From NCBI GenBank assembly GCA_035602245.1, contig DATNMO010000029.1, positions 3,965-67,964 of the forward strand: a DNA stretch of 64,000 nucleotides. The letters run 5' to 3'. The notes under the pieces are model-generated. The model searched no databases and had not been told where the DNA came from. It saw only the letters and a list, made by a program, of their open reading frames with translations. Shown here one piece after another: positions 25,853-48,957 of this stretch (positions within the stretch are counted from its first letter, which is position 1; the number at the start of each line of letters is the position of its first letter). Position numbers and translations under genes: made by a program. Origin of the DNA: Gemmatimonadales bacterium. Lineage in GTDB: Bacteria > Gemmatimonadota > Gemmatimonadetes > Gemmatimonadales > GWC2-71-9.

Positions 25853-28832
25853 CGGCGACGACGCGCGCCAGGTAGGTGACGGCGGGCTTCGTATTGAGGC
25901 CGGCCAGCACGTGGTAGCCGCGCGGGTTCCCGGCCAGGCGGTAGACCTCGGAGCGGCGGTCGTTCAGGTCGCCGAAGACGATCGCCTCCGACGGACACGA
26001 CTGCGCGCACGCGGGCACGATGTCGCCGTCGCGCACATTGCGGTCCTGGATCCGCGCCTGGTTCTGCGCCCCGCGGATCCGCTGCACGCAGAACGTGCAC
26101 TTCTCCATCACGCCCTTCTCGCGCACCGTCACGTCGGGGTTGAGCAGCATCGACAGCGGCTCCGGCCACGCCTCCCACTCCCCGCCGCGCTCCGCGTAGT
26201 TGTACCAGTTGAAGTAGCGGACCTTGTAGGGGCAGTTGTTGGAGCAGTAGCGCGTGCCGACACAGCGGTTGTAGACCTGACCGTTCAGGCCATCGGGCGT
26301 GTGGTAGGCCGCATACACCGGACACACCGGCTCGCACGGCGCGTTGCCGCACTGCTGGCACATCATCGGCGAGTTGACGGCGCCCTGCGGCTGGCCGTGC
26401 TCGTCGGTGAGCCAGTAGCGCTCGATGCGGATCCACGACATTTCGCGGCCGCGCTGCATCAGGTCCTCGCCCACCGTCGCGAGGTTATTCTCGGCGTAGC
26501 AGGCGGTGACACAGGCCGAGCAGCCGGTGCATTTCGAGAGGTCTACGGCAAGCCCCCACCGGGGCTGCTCACCGCGGTAATCCCCGAGCTCCGCTTTTTC
26601 GTGTTGCCGTTCGGCCCACCACTCGACCGCTTCGGCCGCGTACTCCGGCGTCTCCGGATGGTGGAACGGGGCATCGCCCGCCCGGAGCGACTTGGCCCGC
26701 GCGACGCTGAGCACCTCCACGGTGCCTTTGCCGCGTTCGCGGGGGCTGCCCTCGGTCGTCACGATCGTGCGATGGTCGCCAGTCTTGGTCGCCGTGGCGC
26801 GGACGGCGAAGTTGCGGCCGCCGTAGCCGTTCGCCTCCGCGCCCAGCAGCTCGAAGGCATTCGCGGACCGGTCCTTGGCGTAGCGGCCGTAAGCCGAGTG
26901 CCCCTGCCCTGTGGGGACCGCAAGAACGTCCGGCCGCACCGAGTGGGTGATCCAGGCCGGGAATTTCTGCGCGCCGAACGGCGACTTCAGCAATAGAAAG
27001 TCGCCCGTCGCCACGCCCCACTTGGCCGCCGTGTCGGGATGCACCTCCACCCAACTATGCCAAGCGATCTTCGAGACCGGGTCGGGGAGCTCCTGCAGCC
27101 ACGGTTTGTTGGCGCCGCGGCCGTCATGGAGCACGGGATGGGGGAAGACGACGACCGTTTGCTCGGTCTCACCCCCCGGAGTGACAGGCGAGAGCGCAGG
27201 GTCGATTCCGGCGGCGGTGTCCGCAAGGCGCACGGCGCGCGTCGGCGCGGCGCCATACCGCCCGCCATACTGAACCGCTTCCATCCAGAACTGCTCGAAG
27301 CTCTTCCCCGTACCGAGGCGCCGATGCAGCTCGCGCCACTTGGCCTGGACGTAGTCCTGGAACGTTCCCACGCGGCCCGCGAGGCCGAGCACCACGTCGC
27401 CTGTGGGGCGCGTGTCGAACACCGGCTGTACCACCGGCTGCTGGAGGGCATACACGCCCGCGCGGGGCCGGCTGTCTCCCCACTGCTCGAGCGGGTGGTG
27501 ATCGGGCAAGATCAGGTCGCAGGCGGCCGCGGTTTCGTCCATGTAGGACGAGAAGCTCACCTTGAATGCGACTTTGCCGAGCGCCTGCTGGAACGCTCCG
27601 GGAAGTGAGTGCGCCGGGTTCGCACCGTGCACCAGCAACAGCGCAACGCTGCCCGCCGCCATGTCGGTGGTGAGCTTCGCCAGGTCGCCAAACGTGCCCG
27701 CCTCGCCGATTGCCAGATCGGCGCCGAACCGCACCAGCGTGCCGACGCCCCCGACCACGTAGTTGAGAATATTGACGGCGGCGACGATCTCGGCGCCGTT
27801 CGGGTATTGGGCCGCCATGCCGCCGGCGACGGCGAGCCCGCCTTTGGCGTTGGCGAACTCCTTCGCCAAACGCACGATCGCTGCTTGCTCCACACCGATC
27901 GCGGCGGCGACGGCACGCGGCGTGTGGCGCCCCAGCAGGGCCGCCAGGCGTCCGACGTCGGCCGGGACGGGCGCGAGGCGTTGGCTGACGATCACCTGCG
28001 CGAGGGCCAGCGCGAGCGTCCCCTCGGTACCGGGCAGTGTGGCGACCCACTCGTCGGCGTTCATGCCGGTGAGTGACATCCGCGGGCCCACGTACACGAA
28101 TTTCGCCATCGACGCGGGCCGGCCTGCGTCGAATCCGTGGGCGCGTGCGAAGCCGTTCTGGAACTCGACCGGCGACAGCCAGGTGTCGAGGAGATCGGCG
28201 CCGAACGACAGCACGTACTTTGCGTTGGCGAAGTCGTAGGATGGTACCGCCGCCGTCCCAAAGGCGAGACGGTTCCCGGCACGCAACGCTTCGAAGCCGA
28301 ACGGCTCGTAGCTCAGGCGGCGGCCGCCCACCTGCTTCATCCACTCGTCCACCAGATCGCCGAACGACGACGCCTCGGCGCCGCTGAGAAAGACGATGCC
28401 CTTCCCCCGTGCCTCACGGACTTTCGCCCCGAGCCGCTGGATCGCGCCTTGCCAGTCCATCGCCTCGAAGGCGCCGCTCGCGTTGCGCACCATCGGATTC
28501 GTAATCCGGTCGGGATTGTACAGCCCCTGGATTGCCGCCTGCCCGCGCGCGCACAGGCGGCCGCGGTTGATCGGCGACTCGGGGTTGCCTTCGAGCTTGA
28601 CGGCGCGCCCTTCGCGCACGCGCACCTGGATCCCGCAGCCGGCGGCGCACTCGCGGCAGGTCGACGCGTAGTACGTGGCAATGCCGGGGATCTGATCCTC
28701 AGGCTGGATCAGATAGGGGATCAGCTTTTCCGTGGGCTCGGGGCCGATGCCACAAGCGGAAAGGGCCGCGGCGCCGACGCTCGTGACGCCGAGAACTTTG
28801 AGGAACCGTCTGCGATCGATCGCGTCGCTCAT
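25845..28832 (-). CDS. actB: Alternative complex III subunit ActB (molybdopterin-oxidoreductase-like domain fused to a 4Fe-4S ferredoxin domain)
   Basis: The Tat signal is DRRRFLKVLGVTSVGAAALSAC. An MopB-like N-terminal two-thirds is followed by cluster motifs CTGCSACVTAC, CQQCGNAPCEPVC, CSNNCPYK and CAQSCPSEA. Confidence 0.9.
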   Translation of the reverse strand: MSDAIDRRRFLKVLGVTSVGAAALSACGIGPEPTEKLIPYLIQPEDQIPGIATYYASTCRECAAGCGIQVRVREGRAVKLEGNPESPINRGRLCARGQAAIQGLYNPDRITNPMVRNASGAFEAMDWQGAIQRLGAKVREARGKGIVFLSGAEASSFGDLVDEWMKQVGGRRLSYEPFGFEALRAGNRLAFGTAAVPSYDFANAKYVLSFGADLLDTWLSPVEFQNGFARAHGFDAGRPASMAKFVYVGPRMSLTGMNADEWVATLPGTEGTLALALAQVIVSQRLAPVPADVGRLAALLGRHTPRAVAAAIGVEQAAIVRLAKEFANAKGGLAVAGGMAAQYPNGAEIVAAVNILNYVVGGVGTLVRFGADLAIGEAGTFGDLAKLTTDMAAGSVALLLVHGANPAHSLPGAFQQALGKVAFKVSFSSYMDETAAACDLILPDHHPLEQWGDSRPRAGVYALQQPVVQPVFDTRPTGDVVLGLAGRVGTFQDYVQAKWRELHRRLGTGKSFEQFWMEAVQYGGRYGAAPTRAVRLADTAAGIDPALSPVTPGGETEQTVVVFPHPVLHDGRGANKPWLQELPDPVSKIAWHSWVEVHPDTAAKWGVATGDFLLLKSPFGAQKFPAWITHSVRPDVLAVPTGQGHSAYGRYAKDRSANAFELLGAEANGYGGRNFAVRATATKTGDHRTIVTTEGSPRERGKGTVEVLSVARAKSLRAGDAPFHHPETPEYAAEAVEWWAERQHEKAELGDYRGEQPRWGLAVDLSKCTGCSACVTACYAENNLATVGEDLMQRGREMSWIRIERYWLTDEHGQPQGAVNSPMMCQQCGNAPCEPVCPVYAAYHTPDGLNGQVYNRCVGTRYCSNNCPYKVRYFNWYNYAERGGEWEAWPEPLSMLLNPDVTVREKGVMEKCTFCVQRIRGAQNQARIQDRNVRDGDIVPACAQSCPSEAIVFGDLNDRRSEVYRLAGNPRGYHVLAGLNTKPAVTYLARVVADG

Positions 28833-28848
28833 CGCTGTCCCGCTCCGT

Positions 28849-29493
28849 CTAGTAGTGACACACGGTGCAGTCGCGGCTCACCTTGTTCTCCACATGGCAG
28901 CGCACGCACCACCCCATGCGCAGCGTCGAGACCTGGTACACCTGCGGCATTCGCTGGACGTCACCGTGGCACTTCGTGCACGCCTGCGTCCCCAGCGCCT
29001 TGATGTGGCGTTGGTGCGGGAAACGCACGAAGCCGGGGAGCGCGTGGATGCGCGTCCATTCCGGCGGCTTCTTCTCCCGCCACGCATCGCGGACCTTCGT
29101 GATCTCGGCTTGGTGCGACGGCGTCGAGCCGCCGATCAGCTGATGGCAACCAAAACACGTCTGCAGCGAGGGGATGCCCGGCTCACTCGCCACCGCGGCC
29201 GAGTAATGGCAATACATGCACGGGATCTGGTCTTGGCCGGCGTGAATGTCGTGGCGGAAGAAGATCGGCTGGCGGGGACCCTCGAGATCGCCGGTGTCGC
29301 TGACGACCGGCGCCTGGTAGCGACCCGCAGGAGTCTGGGCCGCCAAGGGGAAGGCGAGAACCAGCGACACCACGACCGCAGCTGAACGCAGATGGCCTCG
29401 ATGACGAAGCAGTGGTTCGGTTCGGTGTGGCCCAACAACGACGCGCAGGCCCCCGAATTTATCCTGGCCGGGGAACGGCGCACAAGACGTCAT
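28849..29493 (-). CDS. actA: Alternative complex III subunit ActA (pentahaem cytochrome c)
   Basis: There are five CxxCH motifs (CMYCH, CFGCH, CTKCH, CVRCH, CTVCH). The hydrophobic anchor is AAVVVSLVLAFPLAAQ. The only ATG is at 29493, directly after the upstream stop, so the start is uncertain. Confidence 0.8.
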   Translation of the reverse strand: MTSCAPFPGQDKFGGLRVVVGPHRTEPLLRHRGHLRSAAVVVSLVLAFPLAAQTPAGRYQAPVVSDTGDLEGPRQPIFFRHDIHAGQDQIPCMYCHYSAAVASEPGIPSLQTCFGCHQLIGGSTPSHQAEITKVRDAWREKKPPEWTRIHALPGFVRFPHQRHIKALGTQACTKCHGDVQRMPQVYQVSTLRMGWCVRCHVENKVSRDCTVCHY

Positions 29494-35963: not shown

Positions 35964-36536
35964 GTGACGCGATCGATGATCAGCCGGGTGAAGTACATTC
36001 TGCTCCAACCACGCATCAGTTGGAAGGAGATCGACCGCGAGTTCACGAAGCCCAGCGAGCTGTGGGGGAAATACATTCTGCCGCTGGCGGTGATCGGGCC
36101 GCTCTGCGGCACCATCGGCAGGGTGCTCTTCGGCGCGCGGATTCCCCTGACCAGCCTGACCAACCCCGTACCCCTCTCCACCGCGATCACGTGGGGCGTC
36201 GCTGCTTACGTGCTCTCGCTCATCGGCCTCTTCGTCACCGCGCAGATCGTCAATCTCCTGGCACCGGGATTCGGCGGGCAGAAGAATGACGTGCAGGCGC
36301 TGAAGGCGGCAACCTATTCCAGCACGGCGCACTGGATCGGCGGCGTGTTCACACTCGTCCCGGCGCTCGCGCTCGTGAGTCTGATCTTCTCGCTCTACAG
36401 CGTCTATCTGCTGTTCCTCGGGCTGCCGGTCGTCATGAAGGTGCCCGAGGACCGATCGATGGGATACACGGCGGTCGTCCTCATCGCGTCGATTGTCGTG
36501 TTCCTGATCTTGGGGGCGGTCCTCAGCGCCTTCTAG
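35964..36536 (+). CDS. Yip1 family membrane protein
   Basis: The GTG is preceded by GGAGGG. The N-terminus is VKYILLQPRISWKEIDREFTKPSELWGKYILPLAVIG, followed by 4-5 TM segments. Confidence 0.7.
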   Translation: MTRSMISRVKYILLQPRISWKEIDREFTKPSELWGKYILPLAVIGPLCGTIGRVLFGARIPLTSLTNPVPLSTAITWGVAAYVLSLIGLFVTAQIVNLLAPGFGGQKNDVQALKAATYSSTAHWIGGVFTLVPALALVSLIFSLYSVYLLFLGLPVVMKVPEDRSMGYTAVVLIASIVVFLILGAVLSAF

Positions 36537-37330
36537 GCCCCCCCGCGGAAAGCGGTGCGGGTCACCCCGCCCTCGCGGGCGAGCAACGCTGCCCCCCCGA
36601 GCAGCCCGGCCACGGCGAACGCCACCAGCGCTGCGATGTCGAGCGCCAGCGGCAGCTCGCCGCCGTAGCCCGCGCCCCGCCATCCGCCCAAGAGGGCGTG
36701 CTTAAGCAGATCGACTCCGTAGGCCAGCGGGTTGAGATACACGAGCGCCTGCAGCGCCGAACCCAGCCGGCGCACCGGGTAGAGCGCCCCCGAGAGAAAC
36801 AGCATCGGGAAGACCACGAAGTTCATCACGCCCGCGAAGTTCTCGATCGAGCGGATGCTCGCAGCCAGGACCAGCCCCAGCGCGCCCATCGCGAGACTCG
36901 ATAACACGACGCCCGCGAGAGCCAGGAGCAGCGACTGGGGGCCCGGCCACAGCTGCACGAGCGAGAGGAGAATCACACCGACCGCAACGGCCTGGGTCGT
37001 TCCGAGCAGGGTCGCCCCCAGGATTTTGCCGAGCGCGACCGTGCTGCGGCGAATGGGCGCCACGAGAACCATGCGCAGCACCCCAGCGTCGCGGTCCGTC
37101 ACGGTGGAAAGCGCCGCGAGCAGCGACCCGAACATCACGACCATGCCGAGCAACCCCGGCGCCATGTAACGCCGGTAATCGATCTCTCCCGCACCGGTGA
37201 AGACGGTCGCGAACCCGGCGCCGGCGAAGATCAGCCACACGAACGGTCGCGCCAGACTCGCCAGGACGCGACCCCGTTGTCGCCAAAAGCGCACCAGCTC
37301 GCGCACGACGATCCCGAATACCGGTCGCAT
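36533..37330 (-). CDS. ABC-2 type transporter permease
   Basis: MRPVFGIVVRELVRFWRQRGRV... is a typical ABC-2 N-terminus, followed by six TM segments. It starts 2 nt after the ATPase stop. Confidence 0.85.
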   Translation of the reverse strand: MRPVFGIVVRELVRFWRQRGRVLASLARPFVWLIFAGAGFATVFTGAGEIDYRRYMAPGLLGMVVMFGSLLAALSTVTDRDAGVLRMVLVAPIRRSTVALGKILGATLLGTTQAVAVGVILLSLVQLWPGPQSLLLALAGVVLSSLAMGALGLVLAASIRSIENFAGVMNFVVFPMLFLSGALYPVRRLGSALQALVYLNPLAYGVDLLKHALLGGWRGAGYGGELPLALDIAALVAFAVAGLLGGAALLAREGGVTRTAFRGGA

Positions 37331-37332
37331 CG

Positions 37333-38085
37333 TCAGGCCGCGCTCGGCTCGGCGAGCGGATGGCCGGTGCGCGCGAGAAACACCTCCTCGAGCGAATTCA
37401 CGGCCGCGGCCCGCTTGAGCTCGGCCGGCGTCCCCAGCGCGACGAGCCGCCCGCCGTCGATCACCGCGACGCGGTCGCACGGCTCCGCCTCCTCGACGTA
37501 GTGCGTCGTGAGGAAAACGGTGAGCCCGGACGCCCGGCGCAGCTGCCGGATCAGCTCCCACAACGAGCGCCGGGCGCGGGGATCGAGGCCCGCGGTGGGC
37601 TCGTCAAGGAACAGCACCCGCGGCTGGTGCAGGATGCCGCGGGCGACGTCGAGGGCCCGTCGCATGCCGCCCGACAGCGCGCGCACGGGATCGCGCCGCC
37701 GCTCGAGCAACCCGAATTGGCCGAGCAGCTCGGCAATCCGCGGGGCAGCCAGCCGGCCCGGCAGGCTCCACAGCCGCGCCGCGAAGTGGAGGTTTTCTTC
37801 CACCGTGAGATCGCGGTCGAGCGTCGTCTCCTGGAACACGAGGCCGATGCTGCGCCGAGTGCGGAGGTCGTCGCGCACGACGTCATAGCCGGCGACCCGG
37901 GCCGTGCCGCGCGTCGGCTTGAGGAGGGTGGCGAGCAGATGGACCGTCGTGGTCTTCCCGGCGCCGTTCGGCCCCAGGCAACCGAAAAACTCGCCTTCAT
38001 GCACGGCGAGGTCGAGCTTGTCGAGCGCGCGGATCGAGCCGAAATCTTTGCCGAGACCGCGGGCTTCGATGGCGGGTGCGGTCAT
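37333..38085 (-). CDS. ABC transporter ATP-binding protein (ABC-2 exporter type)
   Basis: The Walker A is GPNGAGKTT, the signature is LSGGMRR and the Walker B is VLFLDEPT. The ATG overlaps the pqqE stop (ATGA). Confidence 0.9.
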   Translation of the reverse strand: MTAPAIEARGLGKDFGSIRALDKLDLAVHEGEFFGCLGPNGAGKTTTVHLLATLLKPTRGTARVAGYDVVRDDLRTRRSIGLVFQETTLDRDLTVEENLHFAARLWSLPGRLAAPRIAELLGQFGLLERRRDPVRALSGGMRRALDVARGILHQPRVLFLDEPTAGLDPRARRSLWELIRQLRRASGLTVFLTTHYVEEAEPCDRVAVIDGGRLVALGTPAELKRAAAVNSLEEVFLARTGHPLAEPSAA

Positions 38086-39206
38086 TCCTTCGTGGCGAGC
38101 GCGCGCGAGGCGGGCGCCGCGCGGTAGGTCCACTCTTCGGGCGTCACTTCCGCCGCAGCGGCCCGCTCGACCTCGGCGATGGTCGCGTCGATCAAGTGCC
38201 GGCGCGGCGAGAGCGAACACACCGGATCGGTGACGCCCGCGTCGCCGGCGACGAGGAACGCCTGGCAGCGACAGCCACCGAAATCGACCTCCTTACGCGG
38301 GCAGGACCGGCACGGCTCGGGCATCCACGAATCGCCGCGGAAGCGGGTGAACGCGTCCGATTCCTGCCAGATCCACTCCAGCGACCGCTCGCGCACGTTG
38401 TCGAACCGAAGCGTCGTGATGCGTCCCGCCGCGTGGCACGGCCACACCTCACCGGCCGGCGTCACCGTCATGTACGAGCGCCCCCATCCCCCCATGCACG
38501 GCTTGGGGAACTGCTCGTGATAGTCGGGGAGGACCCAGACGATCTCCAGCCGGCTCCCGAGGCGCTGGCGCTCGCGCTGCACGACGGCCCACGCCGCCTC
38601 GAGCTGGGCCTTTGTAGGCATCAGGGTTTCGCGGTTGTGGAACGCCCAGCCGTAGAACTGCGTGTTGGCGAGCTCGATGCGCTCGGCACCGAGCGATTCG
38701 GCAAGCCGGATGAGCGCCTCCACCTGATGCAGGTTGCGGCGGTGCAGGACGACGTTGACGGTGAGGGGGAAGCCAAGCTCGCGCGTGTAGTGGTAGGCGG
38801 CGATCTTGTCGCGGTACGACTTGGTCCCGGCGATTTCGTCAGACAGCTCAGCGTCGGCGCCCTGGATGCTGATCTGTACGTGGTCGAGGCCCGCCTGCTG
38901 CAACGCGGTGAGCCGGTCCTTCGTCAGCCGATACGCCGACGTGATCAACGAGGTGTAGAGTCCGAGCCCATGCGCGGTACGGACCAGCTCCTCCAGGTCG
39001 GCACGGAGCGTCGGCTCGCCACCCGACAACCCGAGCTGCAGCACGCCGAGGGCCTTGGCCTCACGGAAGACGCGGCACCATTCCTCGGTCTTCAGCTCCT
39101 GCTTGAAGCGGCCGCCCGCGAAATCGAGCGGATTAGAGCAGTACGGGCATTGGAGTGGACACTTGTAGGTCAGCTCGGCAAGCAGCCACAGCGGCTTAGG
39201 GTCCAT
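38082..39206 (-). CDS. pqqE: PQQ biosynthesis radical SAM protein PqqE
   Basis: PLWLLAELTYKCPLQCPYCSNP is the CxxxCxxC motif. A SPASM-type Cys-rich C-terminus is present. The gene follows pqqD. Confidence 0.9.
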   Translation of the reverse strand: MDPKPLWLLAELTYKCPLQCPYCSNPLDFAGGRFKQELKTEEWCRVFREAKALGVLQLGLSGGEPTLRADLEELVRTAHGLGLYTSLITSAYRLTKDRLTALQQAGLDHVQISIQGADAELSDEIAGTKSYRDKIAAYHYTRELGFPLTVNVVLHRRNLHQVEALIRLAESLGAERIELANTQFYGWAFHNRETLMPTKAQLEAAWAVVQRERQRLGSRLEIVWVLPDYHEQFPKPCMGGWGRSYMTVTPAGEVWPCHAAGRITTLRFDNVRERSLEWIWQESDAFTRFRGDSWMPEPCRSCPRKEVDFGGCRCQAFLVAGDAGVTDPVCSLSPRRHLIDATIAEVERAAAAEVTPEEWTYRAAPASRALATKE

Positions 39207-39465
39207 AGAGCACCAGTCCCTTCGCCGCGAGCCCGTCCAGGAGCGTGCAGACGTCCGGCTCCAGGCCGGTCGCTCCGTACCGTTGCTCGAGGGTCGCCAC
39301 GATGGCGGCGAGCGAACGAACCCCATCGCACAGCCCCAGGATCTCCGCTCCAGTGGGGTTCAGAATGACGAGTCCCTCGGGATACAGCAGGACGTGGCGT
39401 TTGCGGACATCGTCCCATTGCAGCCGCGCCTTCGCCGCGATCCGGGGCACGGCCGCCGCGCCCAC
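39196..39465 (-). CDS. pqqD: PQQ biosynthesis peptide chaperone PqqD
   Basis: This ~89-aa protein reads ...LLYPEGLVILNPTGAEILGLCDGVRSLAAIVATLEQRY. The start is the GTG at 39465 (or the TTG at 39474). It overlaps pqqE by 11 nt. Confidence 0.85.
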   Translation of the reverse strand: MGAAAVPRIAAKARLQWDDVRKRHVLLYPEGLVILNPTGAEILGLCDGVRSLAAIVATLEQRYGATGLEPDVCTLLDGLAAKGLVLYGP

Positions 39466-39470
39466 GCTAC

Positions 39471-40232
39471 TCAAGCGTCCGACCCCGGGAGCGACCCTCG
39501 CGACACCGCGTCGAGCAGGCACCACAGCACGTCGCACTTGAAGTCGAGCGCCGCGACGGCCCGGTCCTGCTCCGCGCGACTCCGGAACCGCTGGGTCACG
39601 AGCGCGAGCGCGTACGCCGCATCCCGCGGCGCCTGCGTCAGTCGATTCCTGAAGTATTGGAGGCCGTCGGGATCGACCCACTTGTAGTGGCTGAGGATCG
39701 CCGCGAGCCGCTCCTGCACGATGAGCGGCGCGAACAGCTCGGTCAGCGACGCGGCGACCGCCTCGAGCCACGGCCGCGTTCGACAGAAGTTGACGTAGGC
39801 GTCTACCGCGAAGCGCACGCCCGGCAGCAGTCGGCGTTGCGTCTGCAGATCGTCGCGCGATACCCCCATCGCCTCGCCGAGGCGCAGCCATGCCTCGATC
39901 CCACCCTCCTCGCCCGGCCGGCCGTCGTGATCGACGATCCGCTGTATCCACTGTTGGCGGACTTCACGCTCGGGGCAGTTGGCAAGGATGAGTGCGTCTT
40001 TGATGGGGATGTTGACCTGATAGTAGAAGCGGTTCGCGACCCAGAGCTGGAGCTCGGCGCGCGACAGCTCACCGCGGTGCATTCGTTGGTTGAAGGGATG
40101 CAGATGATGGTAACGGCGCTCCAGTACGGCGCGCAGCCGGTCCACTAGCTCGCCCTCTGCTGCGCCCTGTGACAAAAGGGCCGGGTTCGTCACCCGGCCC
40201 TTCTGTTGGCTACGACGGCTCGACTCACGCAT
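39471..40232 (-). CDS. pqqC: Pyrroloquinoline-quinone synthase PqqC
   Basis: YHHLHPFNQRMHRGELSRAELQLWVANRFYYQVNIPIKDALILANCPE...WIQRIVDHDG supports the call. An alternative GTG start at 40193 would give a more typical N-terminal length. Confidence 0.9.
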   Translation of the reverse strand: MRESSRRSQQKGRVTNPALLSQGAAEGELVDRLRAVLERRYHHLHPFNQRMHRGELSRAELQLWVANRFYYQVNIPIKDALILANCPEREVRQQWIQRIVDHDGRPGEEGGIEAWLRLGEAMGVSRDDLQTQRRLLPGVRFAVDAYVNFCRTRPWLEAVAASLTELFAPLIVQERLAAILSHYKWVDPDGLQYFRNRLTQAPRDAAYALALVTQRFRSRAEQDRAVAALDFKCDVLWCLLDAVSRGSLPGSDA

Positions 40233-40299
40233 TACCGGCGTAAGCGCCGACTTCCATCCCCAGCTCGACCACTTCGTACTCAGGCTTGGTCCACGACAT
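40225..40299 (-). CDS. pqqA: PQQ precursor peptide PqqA (24 codons; absent from the ORF track)
   Basis: My own translation of the minus strand gives MSWTKPEYEVVELGMEVGAYAGNA-stop. It has the W-x-K-P N-terminal motif and an E-x-x-x-Y pair (E16, Y20). GGAGG lies 7 nt upstream of the ATG. It sits immediately 5' of pqqC. Confidence 0.8.
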   Translation of the reverse strand: MSWTKPEYEVVELGMEVGAYAGNA

Positions 40300-40353
40300 T
40301 GAGAGCCTCCAGAAACAATGGTTGATCAACCGTTGCCAACCGCCAGCATATGA

Positions 40354-40369
40354 AGCACGCTGCGTGCCA
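40354..40369 (-). promoter_or_regulatory. Sigma-54 (-24/-12) promoter upstream of pqqA
   Basis: The minus strand reads TGGCACGCAGCGTGCT. Against the consensus TGGCACG-N4-TTGCW it matches 11 of 12 defined positions. The element lies about 55 nt upstream of the pqqA ATG, directly downstream of a sigma-54 activator gene. Confidence 0.6.
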
Positions 40370-40496
40370 GCCCTGACCGTGCCGATGCAACATCACAACC
40401 CATTGCTCTGCGTACGATTATCCCATTTTCGTAGAGATGGACCACTCCCAGCCCGAGGGCTAGTGCTGAGGCTTTTCACCCAGTACGTGGGTGGAA

Positions 40497-41918
40497 TCAC
40501 CCACCCAGCCCGAACTTCTTCAGACGATAGCGCAGTGTATCCCGCGAAATCCCGAGACGCTGGGCCGCCTTCGTCTGGTTCCCGCCGGCTTCGCGTAGCG
40601 CGCGTTCGATCATGGATCGTTCCCACTGCCCCAGGTCGACCCCCTGCGGCGGCAACGCCGGCGCGCCGGCTGCCGCTCCCGGTTCGAGCGGCGGGCCGTC
40701 GGCCGTGGTCAGCGCGTCCGCGTCGATCGACTCGGCACCTCCCGGGCTCGTCAGCGAGAGATGCGCGACGTCCAACGCGGGCCCGCGACTCCACAGGACG
40801 GCTCGCTCGATGACGTGGCTCAGCTCGCGCACGTTCCCCGGCCAGGGATAGGCGAGCAATAGATCGCGCGCCGGGGCGCTGATCTCTCGCACGGTCTTCC
40901 CGTACTTGGCGTTGAAGCGCCCCAGGAAATGCTCCGCCAGCTGGAGCACGTCCTCCCCGCGCTCGCGCAGCGGCGGCACCTGCAGGACAATCACCGCGAG
41001 GCGGAAATAGAGATCATTCCGGAACCGCTCCCGCCGCACCTCGCGCTCGAGATCGCGGTTCGTCGCGGCGATGATGCGCAGGTCCACCTTGCGCTCGCGG
41101 ACGCTCCCCACGCGCCGCACGGTGCGCTCCTCGATCGCTCTGAGCAGTTTCCCTTGCAGCGAGAGGTCGACGTCGCCGATCTCGTCGAGAAAGAGGAATC
41201 CGCCCTCAGCCGCCTCCATCAGACCGGGCTTCGACTCCTTGGCATCCGTGAACGCGCCGCGCTCGTGGCCGAACAGCTCGGACTCCATGAGGTTCGCGGG
41301 AAGCGCGGTGCAGTTGACCTCGATGAACGGCCGCGTGGCGCGGGGACCGGAGGCGTGGATCGCGTGGGCCAGGAGGCCCTTGCCCGTGCCCGTCTCGCCC
41401 GTCAGGAGCACCGGGGGCGTCTCGTCGAGCGCGGCGATCTGCCGTGCCCGCTCGAGGACCGCGCGGATCGCGGGCGACGCGCCGATCATGCCCGCGAACC
41501 CGACGTCCCGCGTCGCGCGCTGGCGGTAGTAGGACAGCTCCTGCTTCAGCAGGCGATCCGCACGCGCCCGCTCGGCGAGGAGCTTCAGCTCCTCCAGGTC
41601 CACCGGCTTCTTTACGTAATCAAAGGCGCCGAGCTTCACGGCTTCCACCGCACCCTCGATCGTGCCGTAGGCCGTCACCATGACGACCGGGAGCACCGGA
41701 TCGAATTCGCGGATGCGCTTGAGCAGCTCGATGCCGCTCATGCCCGGGAGACGGACGTCGGCAAATACCACGTCCGGCTGCACGCTGGCGAGCAGCTCGA
41801 GCGCCTTCTCTCCGGTGCTCGCGACCGCCGTCTCGTAGCCGTGGTCCGTGAGGTAAGCCTGGGCGGATCGCGCCAGGGTGTGTTCGTCATCGACGATCAG
41901 CACAGTGGCTCCGCTCAT
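40497..41918 (-). CDS. NtrC-family sigma-54-dependent response regulator (REC - AAA+ - Fis-type HTH)
   Basis: The REC domain is VLIVDDE...DVRLPGMSG. The AAA+ domain has GETGTGKGL and ESELFGHERGAFTDA (a GAFTGA variant). The C-terminal HTH is QTKAAQRLGISRDTLRYRLKK. There is an ATGA overlap with the kinase gene. Confidence 0.9.
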   Translation of the reverse strand: MSGATVLIVDDEHTLARSAQAYLTDHGYETAVASTGEKALELLASVQPDVVFADVRLPGMSGIELLKRIREFDPVLPVVMVTAYGTIEGAVEAVKLGAFDYVKKPVDLEELKLLAERARADRLLKQELSYYRQRATRDVGFAGMIGASPAIRAVLERARQIAALDETPPVLLTGETGTGKGLLAHAIHASGPRATRPFIEVNCTALPANLMESELFGHERGAFTDAKESKPGLMEAAEGGFLFLDEIGDVDLSLQGKLLRAIEERTVRRVGSVRERKVDLRIIAATNRDLEREVRRERFRNDLYFRLAVIVLQVPPLRERGEDVLQLAEHFLGRFNAKYGKTVREISAPARDLLLAYPWPGNVRELSHVIERAVLWSRGPALDVAHLSLTSPGGAESIDADALTTADGPPLEPGAAAGAPALPPQGVDLGQWERSMIERALREAGGNQTKAAQRLGISRDTLRYRLKKFGLGG

Positions 41919-43375
41919 GCGCCGTTCGCCACCGGCAGCCAGATCCGTACGGTGGTACCGCGGGCGACCACGCTCGCGATCTCCAGGCGGCCTCCCGCCT
42001 CTTCGACGTAGCGTTTGGCGATCGCGAGTCCGAGACCGGTGCCCTCAGGCCGCGTGGTGACGAAGGGCTCGCACACGGTCGGGAGGATCTCGGCGGGAAT
42101 CCCGGAGCCCGAGTCGGCAATCTCGATGGTAACTCCTCCCCCGTCCGAGCCGGTCTCGCCCGGTTCGGTCCGGGCTGCGATCGCGAGGCGTCCTCCCTCG
42201 GGCATGGCGGCGAGCGCGTTGGAGACGAGCTCCGTCAATGCCTGCTCGAGACGCATAGGGTCCACCAGAATCTCGGGGAGCCCCGCCGGAAAGCTGAGCT
42301 CCAGCTCGACGCGACGCTCGTGGAGCAGCGCGGAGAAGCCCGAGAGCGCCCCATCCACCAGCGCTCGCGCGCTGTCGCGCAGCGGATGGAAGGAGGCGGG
42401 CCGGGAGAACGCGAGCAAGTGGGCAATCCGGAGATCGAGCCGGTCCACCTGCTCGACGATGGCGTTCAGCTGCTCGCGTGCCGCGGGGACCTCCACTCGG
42501 TGTCGCGCGAGCTGCGCCGCGGCGCGCAGGCTCGCGAGCGGATTACGGAGGCCGTGCGCCACCGCCGCCGCCATCTGCCCGATCGAGGCGAGCTTCTCGG
42601 ACTGCACCAGCCGCGCGCGCGATTGGCGCAGCTGCTCCGTCATCTGGGCGAAGGCGCGCGCCAGGTCGCCAATCTCGTCACGGGATCGCGGCTGCATCAC
42701 ATGGTCCAGGTCGCCCGCACCCACGACGGCCATCGCTTGCCGCAGCTCGTTGAGCGGGCGCACCAGACTGCGTGAAATGAGCCACGACGCGACGAGGCCG
42801 GCGACGGCGGCGACCGCGATGATCACCCACAGAATCCGTCGTTCTGTCTCCACGATGCCGCGCACCTGCGCGAACGCTCGCTGCACGCTGAACACACGCG
42901 CCTGGCGATAGATCTCGCGGTTCACCTCCGCCAAGGCGGGCTGCAGACGCTCCACCAGCTCGTGGCGCGCGGTGCGATAGGCCGCGTCGCGCTGCCCCGC
43001 GTCGTAAAGCCTGAACACGCGATTGGCAACCGCCCGGATCTGGCCTTCGATATCGCGGACGCCGGTCGCGACCTTCATTTCATCGGAGGGAAGCCCGGCG
43101 GTCCAGCGCTCAAGCCAATAGTCCACGACCTGTTCGGTGAGCGGAAATTCCTGCTTCGCCCTGAGGTCTCCACCGAGGTAGCGCCAGACCACCTGGGATT
43201 GGTTGAACATGGCGTTTTCCACTTCGGCGTAGGTGCGCGAACGCGCCAGGCGTTGGCCTAGCTCCTCCAGCGTCGCCTGCTCGAGCGCGTTGCTCCGAAC
43301 CGCCTGGATCCCGACGAGCAAGGCAGGGACAACCATGAGCGAGAACCCCAGCAGCAGCTTGCGCTGGAGTGTCAC
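41915..43375 (-). CDS. Sensor histidine kinase (periplasmic/helical sensor - HAMP - HisKA - HATPase_c)
   Basis: The GTG at 43375 lies 7 nt after the pqqB stop. There are two TM segments. The H-box is SIGQMAAAVAHGLRNPL. The ATP-binding region is DSGSGIP...GTGLGLAIAKR. Confidence 0.85.
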   Translation of the reverse strand: MTLQRKLLLGFSLMVVPALLVGIQAVRSNALEQATLEELGQRLARSRTYAEVENAMFNQSQVVWRYLGGDLRAKQEFPLTEQVVDYWLERWTAGLPSDEMKVATGVRDIEGQIRAVANRVFRLYDAGQRDAAYRTARHELVERLQPALAEVNREIYRQARVFSVQRAFAQVRGIVETERRILWVIIAVAAVAGLVASWLISRSLVRPLNELRQAMAVVGAGDLDHVMQPRSRDEIGDLARAFAQMTEQLRQSRARLVQSEKLASIGQMAAAVAHGLRNPLASLRAAAQLARHRVEVPAAREQLNAIVEQVDRLDLRIAHLLAFSRPASFHPLRDSARALVDGALSGFSALLHERRVELELSFPAGLPEILVDPMRLEQALTELVSNALAAMPEGGRLAIAARTEPGETGSDGGGVTIEIADSGSGIPAEILPTVCEPFVTTRPEGTGLGLAIAKRYVEEAGGRLEIASVVARGTTVRIWLPVANGA

Positions 43376-43382
43376 GCGCGCC

Positions 43383-44300
43383 TCACAGTTCGAACTCCAT
43401 GCCGTCCTCTCCCACCTCGAGGCCAGCTGCCTCGACCTGGGCCCGCTCGGCCGAAGTGCGGCACAAGATCGGATTGGTGTTGTTGATGTGCACGAGCACG
43501 GTCCGCTTCGCGCCGGCGCGCGGCAGCAGCTCGATGCCCCCGGCAGGCCCGCCCACCGGAAGATGCCCCATCTCGCGCGCCGTGGGCGCGTCCACCCCCG
43601 CTGCCCGCAACTCGTCGTCCGCCCAGAACGTGCCGTCGAACAGCAGCACATCCGCTCCGGTCGCGGCGGCGCGGACCGCATCGTCGACCGCACCCGCCGT
43701 GGGAATATAGGCGAGCGTTCCCCCCGTCCGCTCATCGCGCAGCCGCAGGCCGACGTCGAACGTTGCCGCCGTTGCCCCGCGGGCGTAGCGGGGCGGCCGG
43801 CGCGCAACCGGAAACGCGGTGCACTGAACGCCGAGCGACTCGCCCTGCGCGTTGGTGAGCTGGAGTGGCCGGCCGCCGGGGCCGCCGTCGGGGATGATGC
43901 GGGCGTCCACGCCCGCATACGCGGCGAGCACGCGGTACAGCGGCCACTCCGCGCCGAGCAGCGCGGCGACGCCCGCCGGCGCGTAGACGGGCAGCGTAGC
44001 GGCGCTCTCGCGCAACAACAAGAGGCCGAGCGTGTGGTCGATCTCGCCATCGGTGAGCATCACGGCCTGAATGGGCGTGCCGCGGGCGCCCCGCGGCCAC
44101 AGCGCCGGGTGAGCGGCGAGCTGCACGCGCAGGTCGGGCGAGGCGTTGAGGAGAATCCAGCGCTCACCATCCGCGCTCACGGCGACCGACGACTGAGTGC
44201 GCCCGGCGCCGTCGGCGCGCGCCGCACGGCAATTGGCGCAGCCGCAGTTCCACTGCGGCAGCCCTCCACCCGCCGCCGACCCGAGGATGATCACTCGCAT
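43383..44300 (-). CDS. pqqB: PQQ biosynthesis protein PqqB (MBL-fold)
   Basis: MRVIILGSAAGGGLPQWNCGCANCRAAR... is the typical PqqB N-terminus, and ...VLVHINNTNPIL is present near the C-terminus. Confidence 0.9.
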   Translation of the reverse strand: MRVIILGSAAGGGLPQWNCGCANCRAARADGAGRTQSSVAVSADGERWILLNASPDLRVQLAAHPALWPRGARGTPIQAVMLTDGEIDHTLGLLLLRESAATLPVYAPAGVAALLGAEWPLYRVLAAYAGVDARIIPDGGPGGRPLQLTNAQGESLGVQCTAFPVARRPPRYARGATAATFDVGLRLRDERTGGTLAYIPTAGAVDDAVRAAATGADVLLFDGTFWADDELRAAGVDAPTAREMGHLPVGGPAGGIELLPRAGAKRTVLVHINNTNPILCRTSAERAQVEAAGLEVGEDGMEFEL

Positions 44301-44307
44301 CGCAGCG

Positions 44308-45474
44308 TCATCCCACGGCTCCGAGCGTCTCCGCCAAGGCTTCCAGCGTCCGGTCCACCGTCGCCTCGTCGTGCGCGAGGGAGACGAAATTGTAGGCGGT
44401 GCGCTTGAACAAGAGGCCGCGTTTTGCGGCGCCGAGCGCCACGGACCACGCCAGCTCCTCCGTCGCGTAGTGCAGGAAGCACATCTCCGCCATCCCGGCG
44501 ACGCCGGTGATGGCGGTGGGGTGATGGCGCTGCAACTCGTGCAGGCCGTGCAGCAGCCGCGTGCCCACACGATGCAGATGGCCGCATACGTCCTCCCGCT
44601 CGAAGACCTCTAGCGTCGCCCGCGCCGCCGCGAGAGCCACGCCTTCAGTCGCCAGCGTCGAGGAAATCCAGGTGCGCGTCGCCTCCGCCATCAGGTCCGC
44701 CCGTCCCCCGACGACCGCAAGGGGAAATCCATTCGCCAGTGCCTTGCCCAGCACGGCCAGGTCGGGCCGCACGCCGTAACGCTCGGCGGCGCCGCCGACG
44801 GCCAGCCGGAAGGCGGTTTTGATTTCATCGAAGACGAGCACAGCGCCCGCGCGCTCGGTCTCGGCGCGCAAGACCTCCAGCCACTCCCGGCTTGGCTCTG
44901 TCACCACGACGGGCTCGATCACCACCGCGGCGAGACTGCGGCCGCGTTCCCGGATCATCTCCCGGGCCGTCGTTACGTCGTTGAAGGGCAGCTCGGCGAA
45001 CAACGAGCGGATGGCGGCTGGAATGCCTTCCGTCCCGCCCTGGCACCAATCGAGCCAGCCGTGGTAGCCGCAGCCGAGGACGTGGTCGCGCCCGGTGGCA
45101 ACACGCGCGAGCCGCACCGCGGCCGCCACCGCTTCCGCCCCGGTCTTGAGGAAACGCACGCGCTCCAGCCACGGGATGCGGGCGGCGAGCGCCTCGGCGA
45201 GCTCTTGCTCGGCAACCGGCGGTAGCGGCCCCACGACGCCGGCGGCGATGGCCTCCTCGGCCGCCCGGTTCACGGCCGGATGCCCGTAGCCGAGCGCGAC
45301 AGCGCCCAGCGCCATCACGTAGTCCACGTACTCGCGCCCGGAACGGTCCCACACGCGGCAGCCGGACGCCCGCACCAGCTGCGTCGGCGCGTCGGGGCCC
45401 GGATCGGGTCCGAACAGGGCGTCGGGCCGCTTACTACCGGTCGACGTGAAGCCCGGAACGCGCCAGTCGCTCAC
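44308..45474 (-). CDS. Class III PLP aminotransferase (glutamate-1-semialdehyde aminomutase-like)
   Basis: FTSTGSKRP, GYGHPAV, FDEIKTAF and the PLP Lys in AVLGKALANG support the class. It ends 7 nt before pqqB. Confidence 0.8.
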   Translation of the reverse strand: MSDWRVPGFTSTGSKRPDALFGPDPGPDAPTQLVRASGCRVWDRSGREYVDYVMALGAVALGYGHPAVNRAAEEAIAAGVVGPLPPVAEQELAEALAARIPWLERVRFLKTGAEAVAAAVRLARVATGRDHVLGCGYHGWLDWCQGGTEGIPAAIRSLFAELPFNDVTTAREMIRERGRSLAAVVIEPVVVTEPSREWLEVLRAETERAGAVLVFDEIKTAFRLAVGGAAERYGVRPDLAVLGKALANGFPLAVVGGRADLMAEATRTWISSTLATEGVALAAARATLEVFEREDVCGHLHRVGTRLLHGLHELQRHHPTAITGVAGMAEMCFLHYATEELAWSVALGAAKRGLLFKRTAYNFVSLAHDEATVDRTLEALAETLGAVG

Positions 45475-46180
45475 TGTATTTCACCACTTCGATGGCCATC
45501 GCGCGGAGCAACTTGACCTCGCGGGCGTCGAGCGGCGCGCGATGCACCAACTCGCGCATCGTGCGCATGATGCCGTCCGCGTTGCGCGTCTTGAAGAAGT
45601 CGATCGTCGTGAGGGCGCGAGCGACATCGTCGAATAGACGCTCCAGGTCCTCCACCGCAGCGGGCTCGGCGGGGCGGCGGGGAGCCTTGAAGGGCAACGT
45701 CTCCGCGCCGCGGGCCAACGCGAGCTCGTAGAGCATCACGATCACCGCGTGCCCAAGGTTGAGCGACGAATACGACGGATCGCTGGGAATCGTCACGATG
45801 CGGTGGCAGCGGTCCAGGGCGTCGTTGGAGAGTCCCTTGTCCTCGCGGCCGAAGAGCAGCGCGACCGGACCGCCGTCCGCGAGCGCCGTGACCTCGGCCG
45901 CGGCCTCGCGCGGGCGCTGCAGGTTACGCTTGGCCGTGCGGCCGCGCGCCGTGAACCCGACGACGTGCACGCAGTCGGCGAGCGCTTGCTCGAGGGATTC
46001 GTACGTGCGCACGCGCGCCAGCACATCCTGCGTCTGGTGCGCAATACCCTCCACGCGATACGCCTCGTATTCGAGCGGATTCACGAGTCGCAGATCGCGG
46101 CAGCCGAAATTCTTCATGCCGCGCACGACGTGCGCGATGTTCACGAGATCCTGGGGCTCGTGGAGGACGACGACGATCAT
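45434..46180 (-). CDS. SpoU/TrmH/TrmJ family RNA 2'-O-methyltransferase
   Basis: MIVVVLHEPQDLVNIAHVVRGMKNFG...LLFGREDKGLSN...IPSDPSYSSLNLGHAV supports the family. There is an ATGA overlap with the upstream gene. Confidence 0.8.
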   Translation of the reverse strand: MIVVVLHEPQDLVNIAHVVRGMKNFGCRDLRLVNPLEYEAYRVEGIAHQTQDVLARVRTYESLEQALADCVHVVGFTARGRTAKRNLQRPREAAAEVTALADGGPVALLFGREDKGLSNDALDRCHRIVTIPSDPSYSSLNLGHAVIVMLYELALARGAETLPFKAPRRPAEPAAVEDLERLFDDVARALTTIDFFKTRNADGIMRTMRELVHRAPLDAREVKLLRAMAIEVVKYSERLARSGLHVDR

Positions 46181-48957
46181 GCGACCAGCTCCAGGACGCC
46201 GAAGCGCGCCGGATCCTGCCGATCGCCGCGCAACCAGACCCACCCGTCGCCGCCGCTCCAGACAAGCTGGCCCACGCGCCGCACCCGGCCAGGAAGCATT
46301 TCGTTAATGATAAGGTCAAAGGCAACGCGGGCGCCCGCGTGGGGGCGCACATCCGCGGGCCAAGGAATCCCGACGGTCACCCGATAGCCCGCCTCAGTGC
46401 GCCGCCAACCACCGCGCACGGCGTTGGGGTTCCCCTCTCCCTGCGTATCGCTCGTCGTCCGCACCCGCACCCCGCGCCCACCCTGCTCGGGCACGATCAG
46501 ATAGCCGACGGCCCCGTGCCCCGCTCCCGGGTTCCCCGCCACGTAGACCTGCAAACCATCGGAATGGATGTCGTCGGCCTCGTTGTCGAGCCGTAGCGGC
46601 GGCGCGTCACCTGGACGAAGGCGGAGGTCCGGCTTCGTGATGTCGACGGCAAGGTAGAGCGCCGCCTCGTCCCACGCAGCATAAGCGAGCGCGGAAAAAT
46701 CGTCGGGCCCGGGATAGACGTCTTCACTGCGGCGGTACTGGTCCTCGAGCCCCAGATGGAGCGGCTCCGCGACATCGAACCCGTCTAATGTGCCGTCCAG
46801 CGGCGGCGGAGCGCCGACCCGGAAGGCCGGGGCCACGACGGGAACGGGCGGATCGAGCTCGAGCAGCGGCGTGAACGGCGGCTGGATGTCTCGGGCGCCG
46901 CGCAGCGCGCGAGGAATGCCGTCGCCTTGCTCAATGGTCAATTCGAGACCGGCGAACCGGTGCCGGTCGATGCCGGCAGCCGTCTCGACCTCCACATTGT
47001 CGCCGCTGGCGCGTACGGCGCGGACCTGCGGCTCGGCGGCGTGCGGCTCCACGACCGTCACGATCCGCACATTGCGGCCCCGGGCCCGCACAACGCAAAA
47101 CGGCGCTCGCGCCATTCCCTCCCGCCCCGGTAGCCCCGGGGCTTCCGCGCGCAAGAGCTCGCCTTCGAACATCAGGTGCGCAGTGAGCCGTGCGTGCTGC
47201 GCCGTGTGCATGATGACGATCGGTCCGGCTTCGTCGGGCACGAAACGTTCCGCGCGCGTCACGAACTCGTCGGGTATCTCATCAGTGACCCAACGGCCCT
47301 TCGTTTCTACGTCGCCCCGACCAGCGAGATGCCAAGGCAACTCGACGACGTGCTCCTCGCGTCCCGTGAGCTCCACGACGTCGAGCACGTATTCGGGACC
47401 CGCGACGACCGTTCGCACCAGGTTGCCATAGCGGCCCCGCACCCACGCCCACCCCTCCTGTTCGTCGAAAGCCTCGCAGACGGCGTCGCCCGGCGGCTGG
47501 GACTCTCCGTCCAACCGCGGCGCGTTGTGCGCCAGCGTGGACCGGTACCAGAACAGCTCGCGTGCGACGTACGACCCCGTGCCGGGGTCCGCGAGCCAGT
47601 GAACCCCGCCGGCGTGTAGCGTGAGGTGCAGCCGGTCGGGATGCCCGTGCCCTCCGCCGTACGGGCCGCACTCGAGACTCACGTAGCGATCCTCGGCGCG
47701 GAGGACCGCCAACCCCTGGCTCTCGAGGAGCACGCTCGGCGGGTTCCACGGCTGCTCGGCCGGCGGAAGGTCGGGCAGCATCTCGAGGAGCGACCACCAC
47801 GAAAGCTTCGTACGGGTGGGGGGAACGGGGACCGATTCGATCGGCGCATCATGCAAGTACGCCTCGATGAGCTCGGGTTTCACGGCGGACACGGCATAGA
47901 GCGCATGCAGCCAGGCCGCGAGGTCGTTGCCTCCCGATCTCGCCAAACCGATCTCCCACAACTCGAGATACATCGGCTGCGCGAGCGAGATGCCGAACCG
48001 CGCGTCCTTGCGCGCTGGAAAGGTGAGGTCGGGAAGGGCCGAGAGCGCCGGCGCCCGGAGCGCCGCAGCCAACCGTGCCGCCACGCGGGGGTCGGCGGTG
48101 AAGTCCACGCCGGCGAGCCTCGCCCATCCCGCCCCGGTGAGCATCCCACGCAAGGCGAAGAGGTGGTAGTTCTCGCCCTCGTACCACATACCGTCCCGTC
48201 CGTAGCCGCGCATCAGGTGAGCCAGGAGGCCGGTCGGCCCCTCGATGGCCCGCTGGGCGAGCTCCTCGTCCTCGAACCACACGGCGACGGCGGCGAGCGC
48301 GGCATTGTTCCACGTCTGCCGGTTCGAAAACGCCTCATCGTAGTCGCCGATCAAGGTTGCGGCTTCCTCGGCAACCTGGTGCACGGCACGCCCCGCGGCG
48401 GGGTCGAGCAGGTCCGCGTCGCGCAGCAGCACAGCCGCGGCGACATAATTGCAGACCCACAACGACTCGAGATAGGTCGAGAAGAATAGGCGGCTCGGAC
48501 CAAGCACGTTGTCGCGGTTGGGATACCGCCAATAGCGCTCCGCGTAGGCACCTAGGATGTCGCGCGCCCGCGCGGCAGCGGGAGCATCGTCGCGGCCACC
48601 GATCGCCGCGATGGCGGCGAGGTGGGCAGCGCGCTCGGCCAGCCACAGGTGCTGGTAGCGCGCCCAGTGCTGGTCGTGGCGCTCGCCCGTCCAGGTCTTG
48701 CCGCAACGAGGACAGCGGTGCGCCGCCGAACTCCAGGGATCGAACGTCAACGCGGTCCCATCCTCGGGGCACACGCCGCCATCGGTCGAGAGCAACGCCT
48801 TGTGATCGGGAATAGTCGGCATGCGTTCCAGCACGGGGCGTGCGCGCGCGCGCAGATGCGCGAGCAGCGCCTGGAGATCACGCGACCCGCTGACTATCTG
48901 ACGTCGCGCCGCGAGCTCTGCCGCCGTCACCACGAGCGCATTCCTTCCGCCGCCCAT
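46177..48957 (-). CDS. Heparinase II/III family protein with an N-terminal zinc-ribbon-like motif and a C-terminal carbohydrate-binding-like domain
   Basis: The zinc-ribbon-like motif is CPEDG...HRCPRCG. The alpha/alpha toroid-like middle carries GMWYEGENYH. The heparinase II/III motif is YGGGHGHPDRLHL, and the C-terminus contains AYAAWDEAALYLAVDI. Confidence 0.7.
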   Translation of the reverse strand: MGGGRNALVVTAAELAARRQIVSGSRDLQALLAHLRARARPVLERMPTIPDHKALLSTDGGVCPEDGTALTFDPWSSAAHRCPRCGKTWTGERHDQHWARYQHLWLAERAAHLAAIAAIGGRDDAPAAARARDILGAYAERYWRYPNRDNVLGPSRLFFSTYLESLWVCNYVAAAVLLRDADLLDPAAGRAVHQVAEEAATLIGDYDEAFSNRQTWNNAALAAVAVWFEDEELAQRAIEGPTGLLAHLMRGYGRDGMWYEGENYHLFALRGMLTGAGWARLAGVDFTADPRVAARLAAALRAPALSALPDLTFPARKDARFGISLAQPMYLELWEIGLARSGGNDLAAWLHALYAVSAVKPELIEAYLHDAPIESVPVPPTRTKLSWWSLLEMLPDLPPAEQPWNPPSVLLESQGLAVLRAEDRYVSLECGPYGGGHGHPDRLHLTLHAGGVHWLADPGTGSYVARELFWYRSTLAHNAPRLDGESQPPGDAVCEAFDEQEGWAWVRGRYGNLVRTVVAGPEYVLDVVELTGREEHVVELPWHLAGRGDVETKGRWVTDEIPDEFVTRAERFVPDEAGPIVIMHTAQHARLTAHLMFEGELLRAEAPGLPGREGMARAPFCVVRARGRNVRIVTVVEPHAAEPQVRAVRASGDNVEVETAAGIDRHRFAGLELTIEQGDGIPRALRGARDIQPPFTPLLELDPPVPVVAPAFRVGAPPPLDGTLDGFDVAEPLHLGLEDQYRRSEDVYPGPDDFSALAYAAWDEAALYLAVDITKPDLRLRPGDAPPLRLDNEADDIHSDGLQVYVAGNPGAGHGAVGYLIVPEQGGRGVRVRTTSDTQGEGNPNAVRGGWRRTEAGYRVTVGIPWPADVRPHAGARVAFDLIINEMLPGRVRRVGQLVWSGGDGWVWLRGDRQDPARFGVLELVA

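Follow-up and report, generated by a model that had tools for sequence, protein, structure and literature searches.

We analyzed a stretch of 64,000 nucleotides from an uncultured soil Gemmatimonadales bacterium (hereafter, the window), in which genes for the biosynthesis of pyrroloquinoline quinone (PQQ), which serves periplasmic alcohol, sugar, and lanthanide-dependent methanol dehydrogenases as their cofactor, are accompanied by genes for a sensor histidine kinase and an NtrC-class response regulator. The comparative evidence points with good confidence to a two-component, sigma-54-dependent switch dedicated to PQQ biosynthesis and common to a family-level group of soil Gemmatimonadales. 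The elements of this predicted switch are located in and around the spacer between the regulator gene and pqqA:

41915–43375, minus strand: sensor histidine kinase, 486 amino acids, with HAMP, HisKA, and HATPase_c domains (Pfam)
40497–41918, minus strand: NtrC-class response regulator, a bacterial enhancer-binding protein (bEBP), matching PF00072, PF00158 (218 bits), PF25601, and PF02954
40488–40503, minus strand: candidate activator site 1, TGGGTGATTCCACCCA, a perfect palindrome overlapping the last codons and the stop codon of the regulator gene
40467–40482, minus strand: candidate activator site 2, TGGGTGAAAAGCCTCA, with conserved TGGGTGA...C.CA
40396–40421, minus strand: A/T-richer stretch, ATAAT followed by CAA-N4-TTG, between the candidate enhancer and promoter
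40354–40369, minus strand: −24/−12 element TGGCACGCAGCGTGCT (equivalently, TGGCACGcagcGTGCT), one mismatch to TGGCACG-N4-TTGCW
40320–40331, minus strand: palindrome GGTTGATCAACC in the predicted 5′ untranslated region (5′-UTR) of pqqA
40300–40496: the regulator–pqqA spacer, 197 bp
40225–40299, minus strand: pqqA, encoding 24 amino acids, MSWTKPEYEVVELGMEVGAYAGNA (TIGR02107, 27.9 bits against a cut-off of 20)

The comparative set was obtained by a kinase scan of one genome per species (GTDB), which yielded 31 Gemmatimonadales loci with kinase identity of 64–89%. The window proteins were mapped onto the loci of these 31 relatives, 29 spacers were aligned, and the information content was profiled for each alignment column. 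Kinase orthologues form more than 120 clusters at 75–89% identity, and all taxon-named clusters belong to Gemmatimonadales or Gemmatimonadetes.

The element TGGCACGCAGCGTGCT is the only match in the window with at most one mismatch to TGGCACG-N4-TTGCW. Its GG and GC are separated by exactly 10 nt, it is on the same strand as pqqA, and the −12 GC lies 56 nt before the pqqA ATG. The match carries weight because it lies in the 197-bp spacer, on the strand of pqqA, and is conserved in the relatives. Across 823 kb of the relatives' loci (both strands), 28 copies of TGGCA[CT]-N6-TGC are found; 27 of these are in the regulator–pqqA spacer, all on the coding strand, 48–63 nt before the pqqA ATG. The element is retained in 28 of the 29 aligned loci (window copy included). 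In this alignment, the −24 TGGCAC and the −12 TGC are invariant save for T/C at two positions, while the intervening bases vary freely. A simple scan of 38000–46500 shows no sigma-70-like promoter. The only other TGGCAC-N6-TGC in the window, TGGCACCCCAGGTGC (57696–57710, minus strand), is within a phosphoglucose-isomerase-like (PGI-like) coding region near the window end, which was annotated by Pfam only; it is most likely a chance match and acts as a negative control for the pqqA element.

Upstream of the −24/−12 element, two tandem palindromes, TGGGTGAnnnCACCCA followed by TGGGTGAAAnnnCYCA, are almost invariant across the relatives and begin at or just past the stop codon of the regulator gene. 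The core of site 1, GGGT..C.CCC, is invariant in all 29 loci, and TGGGTGATTCCACCCA has a single exact match in the window. The distance from its start to the start of the −24 element is 134 bp in the window and 76–146 bp in the relatives, the latter range being the usual enhancer distance for NtrC-class activators. Site 2 starts 21 bp, or about two helical turns, after the start of site 1; per-position conservation of its TGGGTGA...C.CA is 25–29 of 29 loci. The more general pattern GGGT-N6-ACCC is found 36 times in the spacers against five times elsewhere in 411 kb. Judging by position and conservation, the two tandem palindromes are likely activator sites.

Two more features lie in the spacer. 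In the A/T-richer stretch between the palindromes and the −24/−12 element only "AA" and "GTTG" are conserved, and we consider it a weak candidate for a DNA-bending site similar to that of integration host factor (IHF), the resemblance to the IHF core WATCAANNNNTTR being our own reading. The 5′-UTR palindrome reads GTGGTCGACCAC at the same position in most relatives (L003–L034), its symmetry being preserved by paired changes, and a second regulator may use it as an operator. An RNA-structure reading of this palindrome was rejected: it has no match among Rfam families, and its fold is not better than that of shuffled sequence.

A preliminary description of this DNA, made from the sequence of the window, had proposed an NtrC-type activator and a sigma-54 promoter at pqqA, with the near-consensus element at 40354–40369. 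The element is confirmed there with its single mismatch, and the regulatory proposal gains strong comparative support from the footprints across 29 aligned species-level loci. Two possible activator sites that it had named fare differently. The repeat GCAA-N12-TTGC (40387–40406) is shared by the window with L003, its nearest relative, alone, and hence is ruled out as an activator site; CCCA-N5-TGGG exists in the sequence, yet it spans the boundary between the two adjacent conserved palindromes and is not a site of its own.

The regulator has the domains REC, Sigma54_activat, AAA_lid_14, and HTH_8 (Fis-type helix–turn–helix), with GETGTGKG as Walker A and FLFLDE as Walker B. Its best NCBIfam matches, AtoC (448.8 bits against a cut-off of 714) and NtrC (401.1 against 558.6), make it a member of neither family. 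No second bEBP is found in the 64-kb window. The kinase has two hydrophobic segments around an outer region of about 150 amino acids, followed by HAMP, HisKA, and HATPase_c; its best NCBIfam match, AtoS, scores 208.6 bits against 646, and so it is a non-member as well. The sensor region matches no Pfam family even at E-value 10 and has no sequence relative in PDB. Its single-sequence AlphaFold model is all-helical and of low confidence (mean pLDDT, the predicted local distance difference test score, of 62).

Several observations weigh against the switch predicted from the sequence. Taken by itself, TGGCACGCAGCGTGCT is not significant, as 0.53 matches are expected per 64-kb window, and at least one is seen in 45 of 100 shuffles; further, one relative, L014, reads CGGCAC in place of TGGCAC. 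No terminator is found between the regulator gene and pqqA, hence, upstream read-through could also transcribe pqqA, maybe as a basal level. The conserved 5′-UTR palindrome implies that another factor or structure acts at the pqqA leader. The rpoN gene is not seen in the 64-kb window or in the relatives' loci, although this result of a probe search is uninformative and expected for 64 kb; genomes show a near-perfect co-occurrence of sigma-54 with its activators (PMC3162934), so that the presence of an activator predicts rpoN. Finally, the L1 loop of the regulator, ELFGHERGAFTDA, contains GAFTDA and not the canonical GAFTGA in 32 of 32 orthologous copies. The effect of this G-to-D change on the sigma-54 contact is stated to be unknown for VfmH (PMC10714721); in Desulfovibrio vulgaris, GAFTDA is listed as one of the naturally occurring variants held to permit activation, e.g., in DVU2106 (PMC4641369).

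The strongest competing explanation is that the −24/−12 look-alike is not a working promoter, pqqA and pqqCDE being transcribed by read-through of the upstream aminotransferase–pqqB–kinase–regulator string or from an unrecognised housekeeping-type promoter, while the two-component pair controls other targets. It would agree with the non-significance of the isolated motif, the lack of a terminator after the regulator gene, the co-directional and closely packed genes, and the poor knowledge of promoter rules in Gemmatimonadota. However, neither chance nor neutrality can explain invariant TGGCA and TGC with a variable middle in 28 of 29 loci at a fixed distance to pqqA, nor can they explain invariant palindromes at the enhancer distance. 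Neither the window nor the flanks of the relatives show a further sigma-54-type element or a further copy of the palindrome, only one of the 28 TGGCA[CT]-N6-TGC occurrences in the relatives' loci being outside the spacers and the exact site 1 palindrome being single in the window. We regard it as improbable.

Another explanation accepts the palindromes but assigns them to a different regulator, e.g., a repressor, or ties them to the 3′ end of the regulator gene, with the NtrC-type protein binding elsewhere or acting from solution. Binding of the regulator to the palindromes is indeed a prediction; site 1 overlaps the regulator stop codon in the window lineage; and the additional conserved palindrome at 40320–40331 in the 5′-UTR implies at least one more factor or structure. 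On the other hand, inverted repeats in tandem, spaced by about two turns and located 80–150 bp upstream of a −24/−12 element, are the standard arrangement for NtrC-class activators with Fis-type HTH domains, and the palindromes are still conserved in those loci where they are fully downstream of the stop codon. This explanation seems quite unlikely to us.

The predicted switch is part of a longer string of co-directional, closely packed genes on the minus strand at 36.5–46.2 kb (Pfam and NCBIfam scans; gene calls of the public assembly contig, L001). In addition to the features given above, it comprises:

45434–46180, minus strand: TrmJ-like methyltransferase
44308–45474, minus strand: class-III (HemL-like) aminotransferase (PF00202, E-value 3.8e-48)
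43383–44300, minus strand: pqqB (TIGR02108, 359.7 bits against a cut-off of 245)
40174–40200, minus strand: hairpin GGGCCGGGU-GACGA-ACCCGGCCC followed by UUUU, after pqqA
39471–40145, minus strand: pqqC (TIGR02111, 321.8 bits against 240)
39196–39465, minus strand: pqqD (TIGR03859, 86.3 bits against 46), also called in L001
38082–39206, minus strand: pqqE, radical SAM/SPASM (TIGR02109, 526.4 bits against 381)
36533–38085, minus strand: ABC-2 (ATP-binding cassette) transporter pair, ATPase at 37333–38085 and permease at 36533–37330

Gene identities are taken from the Pfam and NCBIfam scans, and the pqq genes were judged by curated equivalog cut-offs, which all five products, PqqA–PqqE, exceed; the class-III aminotransferase is under every NCBIfam equivalog cut-off. 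The PqqA peptide, MSWTKPEYEVVELGMEVGAYAGNA, has the Glu-X3-Tyr motif in the form EVGAY, and the PqqA peptides are almost identical across the 29 loci. The ribosome-binding site of pqqA, GGAGG at 40306–40310, is conserved among the relatives. The likely start of pqqC is the GTG at 40145, with GAGGG in front of it. The gaps on both sides of pqqB are 7 nt (44301–44307 and 43376–43382), so that the kinase GTG start is 7 nt past the pqqB stop; the regulator and kinase genes overlap by 4 nt (ATGA) and are translationally coupled. The GC content of the spacer is 55–58%, compared to about 70% in the surroundings. The longest kinase open reading frame encodes 711 amino acids (ATG at 44050; 41915–44050) and crosses pqqB in a different frame, hence, the kinase could be over-extended by gene callers; the length of one database relative, 635 amino acids, may reflect such over-extension.

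Wherever the contig reaches far enough among the 31 orthologous loci, the kinase and regulator genes directly precede pqqA. The order aminotransferase–kinase–regulator–pqqA–pqqB–pqqC–pqqD–pqqE, with the ABC pair after pqqE, is seen in 25 of 26 relatives whose contig reaches pqqC, the exception being L003. The contiguous pqqA–B–C–D–E order, typical of operons and not needed for the pathway, is thus kept in 25 relatives, but not in the window, where pqqB is upstream of the kinase and regulator. The order aminotransferase–pqqB–kinase is confined to three loci: L001 and L002, which represent the window organism in two samples, and L003, the nearest relative, with 89% kinase identity and a genome from a separate study. 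The aminotransferase is upstream of the kinase in all relatives, and in L017, L021, and L034 its stop codon overlaps the kinase start (GTGA), due to which the aminotransferase–kinase–regulator unit looks ancestral. The window pqqB occupies exactly the aminotransferase/kinase junction.

The canonical order in the relatives argues that pqqB has moved, rather than that the regulators have become embedded in the cluster. By gene order, the two-component pair is conserved just upstream of a canonical pqqABCDE operon and is not inserted into it, and the split arrangement of the window is a recent relocation of pqqB in the lineage of L001, L002, and L003. The possibility that the displaced pqqB is an artefact of assembly or a chimeric contig, the true genome having pqqABCDE, is suggested by the source being a metagenome assembly, but it is hardly credible given the identical order in contigs of two samples (L001, L002) and in another study's genome (L003), and the clean junctions with 7-nt gaps, at which reading of the sequence between pqqA and pqqC reveals no pqqB remnant. 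Given its place in the packed aminotransferase–pqqB–kinase–regulator string, the relocated pqqB is probably co-expressed with the sensor pair and uncoupled from both the sigma-54 promoter and the hairpin.

For the gene string, the preliminary description had given genes, gaps, and element positions, all of which agree with the coordinates, the family cut-offs, and our reading of the junctions; so does its 197-bp spacer of lower GC content. Its placement of pqqB on the kinase/regulator transcript is probable, pqqB being packed 7 nt from each neighbour. Its view that an embedded two-component pair splits the pqq locus is not supported, as 25 of 26 relatives are canonical behind the kinase and regulator. 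It had also called for a check of synteny, and this finds the pair conserved before pqqA and not a one-off insertion.

The hairpin after pqqA has a folding energy of −41.1 kcal/mol for an 86-nt stretch (z-score −3.8). Together with the T-run, it is kept in 29 of 29 aligned loci, and in the relatives it directly precedes pqqB. By these properties, it resembles an intrinsic terminator or attenuator; a comparable hairpin of Klebsiella and Methylorubrum is tied in the older literature to an excess of a short pqqA transcript.

The ABC-2 pair is DrrA/DrrB-like and follows pqqE in nearly all relatives. Its ATPase gene overlaps the pqqE stop codon, hence, the pair is probably the tail of the pqq operon. 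It also matches, below the cut-off, TIGR03864 (242 against 302) and the PedC-type TIGR03861 (162 against 241), both being ABC families of the PQQ-dependent alcohol dehydrogenase system. The pair is a candidate PQQ-related or metal-related transporter.

Starting from the genes, domains, motifs, and conservation observed directly, we infer all steps of the following mechanism from the established behaviour of NtrC-class systems. The membrane kinase would sense a signal through its helical domain of about 150 amino acids on the outer side of the membrane and phosphorylate the receiver domain of the NtrC-type regulator. The phosphorylated regulator would oligomerise on the tandem palindromes, TGGGTGAnnnCACCCA and TGGGTGAAAnnnCYCA, about 110–135 bp upstream of the promoter, and, using ATP, open the closed complex of sigma-54 RNA polymerase at TGGCACG-N4-GTGC. 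A bend in the A/T-richer stretch 40396–40421 may aid the contact between the regulator and the holoenzyme, the IHF-like reading being weak. Transcription is expected to start near 40343, the transcript carrying pqqA. The hairpin after pqqA would probably end most transcripts and yield an excess of the precursor peptide over the enzymes, while read-through of the hairpin would supply pqqC, pqqD, pqqE, and the ABC-2 transporter. In the window lineage, pqqB would be made with the aminotransferase, kinase, and regulator.

A further-reaching version of this switch is doubtful. It would be a PQQ-dedicated module with no described counterpart, in which a new sensor domain of the kinase reads a cue of PQQ need (an alcohol or sugar substrate, a lanthanide, periplasmic free PQQ, or apo-enzyme) and induces the precursor peptide via sigma-54. 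The ABC-2 pair would then represent the PQQ exporter that has long been sought, or else transport metal for PQQ enzymes, and the move of pqqB would reflect a need for PqqB before induction.

Elsewhere in the window, an alternative-complex-III-like cluster (molybdopterin/4Fe-4S subunit, NrfD, ActD, and c-type cytochromes) is seen at about 21800–29300 on the minus strand, adjoining cupredoxin and XdhC-like genes. Further upstream of this cluster are a Ser/Thr kinase, a BTAD/AAA_16 regulator, and an extracytoplasmic function (ECF) sigma/anti-sigma pair.

All parts of the proposed switch (a pqq operon, an NtrC-class two-component system, and a sigma-54 promoter) are of known kinds; what is new is their combination, conserved in about 30 species of an uncultured clade. 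A specialist would not be greatly surprised by such a combination, which is clean, specific, and directly testable. The locus has a compact, conserved set of promoter, enhancer, and activator that can be rebuilt in a laboratory host, and so provides an entry both to sigma-54 control in Gemmatimonadota and to the signal of the kinase. The relocated pqqB is a natural experiment on the role of PqqB, and the transporter joined to pqqE is a lead on PQQ or metal transport. PQQ-dependent dehydrogenases are common in soil Gemmatimonadota and Acidobacteria, and enzymes of XoxF type are reported as frequent in soil Gemmatimonadetes (PMC10875860), where PQQ thus has an obvious use.

Compared to the canonical pqqABCDE(F) operons of Klebsiella pneumoniae, Methylorubrum extorquens, and Pseudomonas, the window locus is alike in the five gene products and in the hairpin after the small pqqA. 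It differs in the detached pqqB upstream of the regulators (the relatives keep A–B–C–D–E), the lack of a pqqF/G protease in the locus, the DrrAB-like ABC pair at the operon end, and the predicted sigma-54-type promoter. Two-component signalling tied to PQQ-dependent metabolism is shared with AgmR/ErbR, PedS2/PedR2, and EraSR of Pseudomonas and with MxbDM/MxcQE of Methylorubrum. These PQQ regulators are LuxR- or OmpR-type, act at sigma-70 promoters, and thus are of another class than the NtrC-type; none of them is known to be an enhancer-binding protein placed next to pqqA. A full-text literature search found no paper on a sigma-54/RpoN promoter or an enhancer-binding protein for pqqA. A Burkholderia symbiosis island has both pqq genes and a sigma-54 regulator, with no link described between the two. 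The activator of the Pseudomonas pqq operon is AgmR/ErbR, of LuxR type, and the sigma-54-dependent CbrB enters only as a distal global regulator (PMC12997753). The genetically linked ABC transporter has a parallel in PedA1A2BC of P. putida, the permease of the window being PedC-like, albeit below the cut-off.

The closest likeness of the regulatory part is to NtrB/NtrC, AtoS/AtoC, and ZraS/ZraR, with which it shares the domain architecture of both proteins, their translational coupling, and a −24/−12 promoter (predicted here) with candidate tandem inverted-repeat enhancers about 100–150 bp upstream. The scores of the window proteins are far below the equivalog cut-offs of AtoC, NtrC, and AtoS, and the pair forms a separate orthologous group that would work in a similar way; it is distinguished from these systems by a sensor of no known family, the GAFTDA loop, and cofactor biosynthesis as its predicted target.

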